DNA from: Promethearchaeum syntrophicum
GTDB lineage: Archaea; Asgardarchaeota; Lokiarchaeia; Sigyniarchaeales; Promethearchaeaceae
Assembly: GCF_008000775.2 (NCBI RefSeq)
Contig: NZ_CP042905.2
Location: 1,590,001-1,622,000, forward strand
Reading direction: 5' to 3'
DNA length: 32,000 nucleotides
Both the position numbers and the translations under genes were made by a program. Under the pieces are notes generated by a model. That model saw nothing but the letters and a program-made list of their open reading frames with translations, was not told where the DNA came from and made no database searches. Below are positions 30,455 through 32,000 of the stretch, in pieces (the first letter of the stretch is position 1; the number at the start of each line of letters is the position of its first letter).

Positions 30455-31771
30455 TTAATTGAATATTTCAATTCCATCTTCGGTTACAATAAAGGTTTTT
30501 TCAAATTGACTGACATAAGCACCTTTTTGCTCTCTTAATTCATAATGCTTATGCAATTTGCCCGCAGTAGTTAGTTCTCGTAAAGCCATTTTTCCAGTGC
30601 GAAATTCTTTCAATAATTCACGTGTGGAAAACGGAAGAGTTTTCTTTATGTTTGCGATCCACCCAATTACTTGGCGAGTTATTTTCATACGGATTGGAAC
30701 ACGCTCAGAATTTAAATCATATTCATAGATATTGCAATTTGTTCCATTGTGAATATTTCCTAGCCCAGTAGATGCAAAACATTCTAACGCAAATACATCC
30801 CCTTCTTCGAAAACATCTCCGCTGGAAATTCCTACACTAGGGATGGATTTAAAGCCATGTACTTGCCATTTCTCTAAAGAATGTCCGCGTAAATCTTTGA
30901 TTGGATTATACCCAAAACCTCTGATTATTTTGGCAGTCGTCTTTCCCACTTCAATTGTTTTAACTCCGGGTTTAATTATAGATAATCCTTTCATAACTGC
31001 GGTTTCTACAGCAGTAACTAAATTTGCTGTGGCTGGATCTTGATTAAAGGAAACAGAAAATGCGCCATCTGCAACGTATCCCTCCACTGATACTCCAATA
31101 TCAACTTTTACCACATCTCCTTCTTTTATAACTGATTCATCATTTGGAGGGCTTGAGTAATGAGCTGCAATTTCATTGATACAAACATTCGTTGGGAATC
31201 CGATTTCCCCCCCAAGTTCTATAAGTTTACTTTCAGTTTGTTCACAAATATCAAGTAACTTTGCCCCGATCTTGACTTTTGGTTTAATAAATTTTATTAC
31301 CTGTTTATGGATTTCCCCCGCTTTTTTAAACGAATCATAACGCAATTTTTTTTCTTTTTCTTCTTCTTCTTTTTGGGTTTTTTCTTCTTCAGTTAATTCC
31401 TTTTCTGCCTTTTCTTCCTTCTCTTCTTTCTTTACTTTTTTAGTTTGATTTTTAGGTTTTTGAACCTGTTTTTTAGAAGAGGTTTTACTTACTCCTTTCT
31501 TAACTACAGCTTTTGAAGTTTTCGCTGTTGATGGCTTTTTAACTACGCTTTTTGTAGTTTTTTTAGTTGAAGTTTTTTTTGAAATTTTTTTTGTAGTTTT
31601 TTTGGAAGTTTTCTTCTTGACAGACTCTTTAATTACTTTTTTAGTTGAACTCTTTGCTGGTTTTTTAACATCTTTCTTAGAAAGCTTCTTTGTTGTCTTC
31701 TTAGTAGTCTTTTTTTTTGTAGACTTCTTTACTGCTTTACTCGATTTTTTAGGAGGAGTCATTATTTTCAT
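30455..31771 (-). CDS. map: Type-2 methionine aminopeptidase (MetAP2) with a ~140-aa Lys/Ser/Thr-rich then Glu/Lys-rich N-terminal extension
   Basis: Catalytic core: AGEIHKQV..., FPTNVCINEIAAHYSPPNDESVIKEGDVVKVDIGVSVEGYVADGAFSV, RGHSLEKWQVHGFKSIPS, ALECFASTG and SQFEKTFIVT (the pita-bread metal ligands D, D, H, E, E). The start is placed at the ATG at 31771 (alternative 31762). The ORF-track start at 31900 adds a hydrophobic 43-aa leader and would overlap the divergent gene that starts at 31890. Confidence 0.85.
   Translation of the reverse strand: MKIMTPPKKSSKAVKKSTKKKTTKKTTKKLSKKDVKKPAKSSTKKVIKESVKKKTSKKTTKKISKKTSTKKTTKSVVKKPSTAKTSKAVVKKGVSKTSSKKQVQKPKNQTKKVKKEEKEEKAEKELTEEEKTQKEEEEKEKKLRYDSFKKAGEIHKQVIKFIKPKVKIGAKLLDICEQTESKLIELGGEIGFPTNVCINEIAAHYSSPPNDESVIKEGDVVKVDIGVSVEGYVADGAFSVSFNQDPATANLVTAVETAVMKGLSIIKPGVKTIEVGKTTAKIIRGFGYNPIKDLRGHSLEKWQVHGFKSIPSVGISSGDVFEEGDVFALECFASTGLGNIHNGTNCNIYEYDLNSERVPIRMKITRQVIGWIANIKKTLPFSTRELLKEFRTGKMALRELTTAGKLHKHYELREQKGAYVSQFEKTFIVTEDGIEIFN
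31340..31759 (-). repeat. In-frame low-complexity block: KK(T/S)xKK repeats (31427..31759) followed by an E/K-rich segment (31340..31426)
   Basis: PPKKSSKAVKKSTKKKTTKKTTKKLSKKDVKKPAKSSTKK...KKVKKEEKEEKAEKELTEEEKTQKEEEEKEKK, encoded by A/T-rich imperfect repeats. Confidence 0.8.
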
Positions 31772-31889
31772 TATTTTTAAAGAACGATAAGATTTTAAAT
31801 TTCGCACAAAAGTAATAAACAAAATTAATAAACAGAACAATACAAAATATAAATTAATTATTAATTTTGGATAGCGTGAAAAATTAACA

Positions 31890-32000
31890 ATGCAAAACAT
31901 AGATACGGCGCCAAAAGCGCATACAGATAAATTGTGGTATATTTTACAAGAATTAACTAGTAACCGTGGTGATATTCAAGGATGTACAATTGTTACTACT
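31890..32000 (+). CDS. Probable Roadblock/LC7 (MglB-like) domain protein, N-terminal fragment; 3' end outside window
   Basis: The ATG at 31890 opens a frame that stays open to the window edge: [37 protein letters not shown]. The pattern L..IL.EL.....gi.G..iv..dG is characteristic of Roadblock/LC7 N-termini. Only 37 aa are visible. Confidence 0.35.

Follow-up and report, generated by a model that had tools for sequence, protein, structure and literature searches.

The stretch of DNA analyzed here (the window: 32,000 nucleotides, G000:C1:1590001-1622000) comes from the closed 4.32-Mb genome of Promethearchaeum syntrophicum, which has a G+C content of 31%. Near the end of the window, on the minus strand, lies an open reading frame (ORF) for a type-2 methionine aminopeptidase (MetAP2), a gene that public records label merely "type II methionyl aminopeptidase." Ahead of its catalytic domain, the protein carries a highly charged N-terminal arm of about 143 to 146 residues, depending on whether translation begins at ATG 31762 or ATG 31771. 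The composition of this arm, its distribution among archaea, and its possible role are considered below. Compared with QEE16206.1 of Candidatus Prometheoarchaeum syntrophicum, the product shows 98% identity along the full length and 99% in the catalytic region. Coordinates of the features are collected in Table 1.

Assignment of the enzyme was based on family profiles, catalytic residues, and structure. The ORF scored 271.6 bits against TIGR00501 (type II methionyl aminopeptidase, peptidase family M24A; cut-off, 222.65), or 273.1 bits in a whole-genome search, and Pfam Peptidase_M24 also matched. In an alignment to Pyrococcus furiosus MetAP (1XGS), which was the best sequence and structure match (174 bits), the catalytic His204 and the metal ligands Asp224, Asp235, His297, Glu330, and Glu424 (P0001 numbering) were all intact and identical to those of the Pyrococcus enzyme; the catalytic His and the five ligands are invariant across 86 homologues. 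An AlphaFold2 model placed the core at a predicted local distance difference test (pLDDT) score of >95 and superposed on 1XGS over 291 of 295 residues (Z 41.5, root mean square deviation 1.8), and comparison with human and Chaetomium MAP2 gave structural Z scores of about 38 to 40. The catalytic domain begins near residue 147 of the 438-aa product and contains, in its C-terminal half, the helical insert of type-2 enzymes (~60 residues); type-1 enzymes aligned over 233 residues only. By family score and intact residues, the protein is a type-2 methionine aminopeptidase, the paralogue termed clade A below, and its sequence leads one to expect an active enzyme, which would trim the initiator methionine from nascent proteins.

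The same fold is used by Ebp1/PA2G4 and Arx1 (Z about 33 to 37), which are inactive exit-site factors that have lost their metal ligands. The Asgard enzyme differs from them in keeping all of its metal ligands, and its score of 145 bits against TIGR00495 lies far below the cut-off of 430. Ebp1/PA2G4 and Arx1 use a Lys-rich terminal region for contacts with ribosomal RNA (rRNA) (PMC10808355).

The sequence-only reading of this DNA had placed the start of the gene at 31900, the first codon of the 481-codon ORF. That start was not sustained, as it overlaps a Roadblock/LC7 gene oriented divergently and homologues do not support it: the first 43 codons (31772-31900) are hydrophobic and lack a counterpart in any homologue, and homologue N termini read MKIMTP.., MTP.., or MAKK... 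Translation therefore most likely begins at ATG 31771 or ATG 31762, and the stretch from 31772 to 31900 is probably not translated. The spacing of a TATA-like box located upstream of ATG 31771 would fit a leaderless mRNA.

With the start so placed, the arm resolves into two blocks, a basic block at residues 1 to 111 and a Glu/Lys-rich block at residues 112 to 143 (P0002 numbering). The sequence-only reading had described about 110 residues of KK(T/S)xKK repeats followed by about 30 E/K-rich residues, and the measured 111 plus 32 residues before the core bear this out. Among the 143 residues are 55 Lys and 1 Arg, a Lys content of 38% compared to 8.5% in the ORFs of at least 100 aa in this genome; within that same set, just one basic low-complexity tract is longer than the basic block, by a metric devised for this analysis. 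AlphaFold2 gave pLDDT values of 40 to 54 for residues 1 to 120, without secondary structure, and this part is predicted to be disordered. The model then continues as a single unbroken predicted helix from residue 125 to 162, running from the ELTEEEK motif into catalytic helix alpha1, with pLDDT values of 76 to 93 in the extension part. The motif resembles an S/T-x-x-E helix capping box, in which Thr124 would occupy the N-cap position, and it is kept in most aligned Lokiarchaeial relatives.

The distribution of N-terminal extensions was surveyed across Asgard lineages. Among 61 Asgard genomes, two MetAP2 copies were found in 35, three in 8, one in 16, and none in 2 at the threshold used; the present genome has two. 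Proteins of clade A, to which the enzyme described here belongs, carry a charged extension in 86 of 86 aligned cases (24 to 151 residues, median 51). Gaps are nearly absent from the 16 alignment columns that precede the core in these 86 sequences, and at least 3 Lys/Arg are present among the first 12 residues in 70 of them. Only 28 of the 86 have a basic block that reaches 30 residues or more, and to explain this pattern the catalytic-domain tree requires no fewer than 10 state changes. Clade B forms a separate clade with 99 to 100% support; its proteins measure 219 to 336 aa, and an extension was found in 0 of 120 among the matches listed. The clade B copy in this genome shows the catalytic motifs on reading of its ORF. 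The "acidic block" of the sequence-only reading thus stands as part of a charged extension, but not as a feature peculiar to this gene, given that it is a predicted Glu/Lys helix continuous with alpha1 and that every aligned clade A protein has an extension of at least 24 residues.

Extension length varied with lineage. In the Lokiarchaeia-type group and in Hermod-, Sigyn-, Thor-, Hod-, Heimdall-, and Helarchaeota, 21 to 67 acidic residues precede the core, and the extension measures 9 to 31 residues in Jordarchaeia and 7 at one Thor locus. Outside Asgard archaea, the expectation that archaeal MetAP2 consists of the core alone held. In the named non-Asgard archaea, 6 to 16 residues precede helix alpha1 (28 in Nitrosarchaeum), and hits outside clade A in a library of 50%-identity representatives were nearly all 285 to 316 aa long, with matches beginning at residue 3 to 13. 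The sequence-only reading had raised the possibility that such extensions are common in unrelated archaea; the non-Asgard MetAP2 proteins surveyed are nearly all extension-less. Overall, the best-supported reading is that the proximal, charged extension has long been part of clade A across Asgard lineages.

Further N-terminal variants were observed in the course of this survey. P0246 (401 aa), which falls near clade A in trees, has a Lys/Thr/Ala-rich tail of ~100 residues without the acidic helix, and P0291 (347 aa) has an N terminus of ~45 residues in which Asn, Lys, and Ser abound. One Asgard family, f7, carries two tandem MetAP2 genes and a third elsewhere, and a tandem copy in genome G046 has a 417-codon open frame.

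In eukaryotic MAP2 (MetAP2, p67), an N-terminal extension of alternating basic and acidic segments has been described as MAP2-specific; the basic patch nearest the core recruits the rRNA expansion segment ES27L, and removal of the extension lowers ribosome occupancy at the tunnel exit (PMC10808355). The same source bears out the statement in the sequence-only reading that a charged extension is a ribosome-contact feature of eukaryotic MetAP2. The Asgard protein shares with eukaryotic MAP2 the type-2 pita-bread core with its helical insert, a predicted disordered poly-Lys and acidic extension whose length is highly variable between species, and a first helix lengthened at its N terminus, where structural alignment starts at model residue 127 compared to residue 140 for Pyrococcus. 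By analogy, a role in ribosome or rRNA contact would be expected for the Asgard arm as well. The Asgard arm differs in having just two blocks and in using Lys/Thr/Ser repeats instead of pure Lys/Arg runs. The beta insert is absent, leaving a gap opposite human YEVEIDGKTYQVK in pairwise and profile alignments, and so is the QT.PP..FP.GE..TSEEKR region of "N-terminal helices." The P. furiosus enzyme has no N-terminal arm and begins ~4 residues before the start of the core alignment. In composition, the basic block is like the tails of histone H1/HC2 type (PF07382 matched two homologues) and the predicted Glu/Lys helix is like ER/K single alpha-helices; each likeness is to a compositional class and not to a homologous family. 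In the literature on Asgard archaea and MetAP extensions or lysine-rich disorder, no paper describing such tails for a MetAP was found.

Tails of this kind are not restricted to MetAP2. A census of Lys-rich windows in the genome yielded about twenty proteins with KKTTKK-type tails. A family could be assigned to 12 of these, and nine of the 12 belong to nucleic-acid machinery: uS3, uL30, aIF2-gamma, RNA polymerase A' and A'', an RNase PH exosome subunit, RadA, PolB, and an ArsR-type helix-turn-helix (HTH) protein. The remaining three are an FKBP-type isomerase, a MoxR-type AAA protein, and an FHA protein, and NCBIfam gave no informative assignment for 8 tail carriers unexplained by Pfam. In eukaryotes it is eIF2-beta that bears lysine blocks, and MetAP2 associates with eIF2; in this archaeon, a tail is found on aIF2-gamma. 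In genomes of the same order, the aIF2-gamma match begins inside a Lys-rich region in 3 of 5 while their MetAP2 lacks a long tail, and the tails therefore evolve independently in each protein. It was also observed that uS3 matches in same-order genomes do not stop at the uS3 domains annotated by Pfam but continue into the tail. At 235 residues, the tract in a 313-codon ORF at G000:C1:2343147-2344088 is the longest basic, low-acidic one of the census.

We give roughly an even chance to the proposal that clade A MetAP2 is an enzyme with an RNA- or ribosome-tethering arm, composed of an old proximal extension and, in this lineage, a recent and recurrently acquired lysine tract driven by repeats. 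The disordered cationic Lys/Thr/Ser tract (~111 residues) would bind RNA non-specifically and, once bound, would hold MetAP2 at the ribosome or in its vicinity, near the tunnel exit. As for the charged helix, which lengthens the first catalytic one, its stiffness would keep the tail off the active site. The logic would be that of the poly-Lys contact between eukaryotic MAP2 and ES27L. The lysine tract itself would have grown recently, through repeats, from a short basic tip at the N terminus (MAKK- or MTPKK-), having been gained or lost many times, and the MetAP2 tail would be part of a wider habit of this organism, that of placing tails on proteins that act on nucleic acids. Several observations weigh against such a tether. 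The sequence-only reading saw in the arm the same basic-then-mixed-charge logic as in eukaryotes; two charged blocks are indeed present, but their order is reversed, with a distal basic block and an acidic block next to the core in the Asgard protein, compared to a core-proximal basic patch in eukaryotic MAP2. A survey of Asgard rRNA reported a 95-nucleotide (nt) ES39 in P. syntrophicum, with ES27 unmentioned (PMC7594248). The long block is absent from most clade A orthologues, for example from Lokiarchaeum ossiferum (337 aa) and six genomes of the same order (328 to 359 codons), and therefore cannot be essential for the function of the paralogue. Finally, tail carriers are also mostly highly expressed housekeeping proteins, and the link of tails to nucleic acids could instead reflect tolerance of tails derived from slippage.

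This last point leads to the main rival of a tether, namely that the lysine block is neutral low-complexity sequence, produced by slippage of A-rich repeats in a genome of such low G+C and tolerated at a disordered terminus. We regard this as doubtful. Imperfect tandem repeats of 9 to 39 nt in the DNA of the basic block, its patchy occurrence among the 86 orthologues, and the many other proteins of this genome with similar tails are all consistent with it. It sits less easily with the conservation of the block, as frame and composition are kept in 14 of 14 full-length close relatives (82 to 100% core identity), whose extensions measure 113 to 151 residues with 34 to 40% Lys. Strain MK-D1 has an identical Lys block over its first 108 residues where the core has four substitutions, and the two proteins differ in length by just one in-frame indel of 3 residues at the junction; more distant relatives retain Lys while other residues change, as in Ala-rich AKKTTAKK versions. 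The identified tail carriers, moreover, are mainly nucleic-acid machinery, and the sampled AT-rich non-Asgard archaea mostly lack such tails on MetAP2. A function other than ribosome tethering, in which the tail would serve some different polyanion role (DNA or nucleoid binding, condensates, aIF2 or another partner, or basic-acidic autoregulation), appears quite improbable. Similar tails on RadA, PolB, RNA polymerase, and the HTH regulator, the HC2 family matches of two homologues, and the Lys-rich tail on aIF2-gamma would be in keeping with such a role; the ribosome, however, is the only known nucleic-acid-containing partner of a MetAP, no domain or motif indicating a specific partner was found, and an acidic block of charge −5 cannot neutralize a basic block of +44. 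That the extension is not made at all, with translation starting downstream at a codon such as the in-frame TTG at 31343-31345 (the Leu of KKLRYD), is hardly credible. This codon does sit at the boundary between arm and core, and two database homologues have been called short (P0004, 303 aa; P0010, 319 aa), but the Glu/Lys helix is kept at the amino-acid level, almost gap-free, in the 86 clade A sequences. The Lys block is in frame in 28 of 28 carriers and the basic N-terminal tip is conserved, no ATG occurs from residue 4 to about residue 257, and the TATA-like box lies ~25 nt upstream of ATG 31771.

The relationship of the arm to the eukaryotic extension is a separate matter. The sequence-only reading had offered an archaeal precedent or a convergent version, and for the lysine block it is convergence that gained support, from the number of state changes, whereas an inherited precedent did not and homology of the arm lacks profile support. 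From the sequences compared, the lysine blocks of Asgard and eukaryotic MetAP2 more likely arose by parallel evolution; inheritance of the proximal part of the arm by eukaryotes is possible. A stronger version, in which the arm, or its proximal charged helix with the basic tip, is the direct precursor of the eukaryotic extension, inherited from an Asgard clade A gene, is in our view improbable. It draws on a pairwise HMMER alignment of ELTEEEK..KKLRYDSF with human RTTSEEKK..EIWNDF, on T-x-E-E-K-like motifs, which eukaryotes keep near-invariant and which are also present in Asgard copies, those of Hodarchaeota and Sigynarchaeum among them, and on the structural alignment, which reaches 13 residues further upstream with human and Chaetomium MAP2 than with Pyrococcus MetAP. 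When family profiles were aligned with hhalign, however, the alignment did not begin until residue 139, just six residues short of the core, and left the motif outside; homology between ELTEEEK and eukaryotic TTSEEKR was accordingly set aside and is kept as a weak lead. The absence of the beta insert and of the QT.PP..FP.GE region from the Asgard protein, as well as the clear recurrence of lysine blocks, also argues against direct descent.

Phylogenies gave divided results on the same question. Three trees were built, with eukaryotic sequences reached through an Anaeramoeba hit. Eukaryotes fell on the clade A side in a FastTree analysis of 118 rows (Shimodaira-Hasegawa [SH]-like support, 80 to 88) and in an IQ-TREE LG+C20 analysis of 66 rows (SH-like approximate likelihood ratio test [SH-aLRT], 90), both in line with a precursor. 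The LG+C20 mixture-model tree of 118 rows instead joined eukaryotes to two long-branch rows, and its backbone lacked support (value, 13); an approximately unbiased (AU) test on the 66 rows did not reject eukaryotes with clade B (p 0.47). In a published summary of marker trees, Eukarya lie one node from Njordarchaeales for MetAP2 (PMC12395588). An Asgard division of labor, in which clade A bears a ribosome-docking arm and eukaryotic MetAP2 with its tethering extension descends from clade A, is likewise improbable; if true, it would make the eukaryotic arm an inherited and later elaborated Asgard invention rather than a eukaryotic novelty.

With regard to the surroundings of the gene, an AT-rich 118-bp spacer separates MetAP2 from the divergent Roadblock/LC7 gene. 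No GTPase gene adjoins Roadblock/LC7 within the examined part of the locus (L001), where it is followed by a thymidylate kinase gene on the opposite strand. An 84-aa ORF without a Pfam match (30090-30344, minus strand) follows MetAP2 in the same orientation, 110 bp downstream. Among these neighbors (Roadblock/LC7, thymidylate kinase, an NAD-dependent epimerase, and the family-less 84-aa ORF), no functional link to MetAP2 was found.

Table 1. Features of the MetAP2 locus (window positions) and of related loci (genome and contig coordinates)
Feature	Position	Strand	Remarks
Full ORF	30455..31900	minus	481 codons; coordinates include the stop
MetAP2 coding sequence	30458..31771	minus	438 aa from ATG 31771 (P0001)
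Alternative start	ATG 31762	minus	435-aa product, as in database proteins P0002 and P0003
Stop codon	30455..30457	minus	ORF end coordinate includes the stop
Catalytic pita-bread domain with type-2 helical insert	30458..31333	minus	Alignment and structural match to 1XGS
Basic block	31430..31762	minus	111 residues, KK(T/S)xKK-type low complexity, net charge +44
Glu/Lys-rich block	31334..31429	minus	32 residues, net charge −5; last ~22 a predicted helix
ELTEEEK motif	31379..31399	minus	N terminus of predicted helix; Thr is residue 124, helix from 125
Upstream part of 481-codon ORF	31772..31900	minus	Intergenic promoter region common with divergent gene; overlaps its start
TATA-like TTTAAAA	31793..31799	minus	~25 nt upstream of ATG 31771; promoter-like scan match 31799-31770
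Roadblock/LC7 gene start	31890..32000	plus	131 aa, continues to 32285 past the window (L001, 2930..3325); Pfam Robl_LC7 E 1.1e-11
Clade B MetAP2 copy	G000:C1:1333171-1334055 (L002, ORF 1477..2439)		TIGR00501 262.9 bits, without extension
MetAP2 loci of family f7	G046:C18:94772-96603; G027:C38:32124-33871; G055:C17:76994-78837; G037:C118:10845-12590; G005:C35:59856-61853		
aIF2-gamma	G000:C1:957386-958858 (L009)		N-terminal KKTTKK-type tail, about 55-75 residues
RNA polymerase A' and A''	G000:C1:3655732-3660214 (L010, L014)		Adjacent genes, Lys-rich tails at the split: A' C terminus, A'' N terminus
uS3	G000:C1:694324-695289 (L006)		C-terminal tail
uL30	G000:C1:687142-687816 (L017)		N-terminal tail
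RNase PH exosome subunit	G000:C1:19111-20157 (L011)		C-terminal KKEPKKEP repeats
RadA	G000:C1:3503369-3504535 (L020)		Lys-rich N-terminal tract
Family-B DNA polymerase, intein-containing	G000:C1:3682885-3687153 (L024)		Lys-rich N-terminal tract

Removing the initiator methionine is one of the earliest steps that take place at the ribosomal tunnel exit, and MetAP2's charged arm has been viewed as a means, specific to eukaryotes, of docking to an rRNA expansion segment. The present analysis indicates that Asgard archaea have a separate MetAP2 paralogue that always bears a charged extension, to which some lineages, including the cultured Promethearchaeum, add a poly-lysine tail of great length. 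It also shows that information-processing proteins with lysine-rich tails are a recurrent Asgard theme, and the clade A enzyme offers a tractable archaeal system for learning how enzymes that act during translation became tethered to the ribosome.

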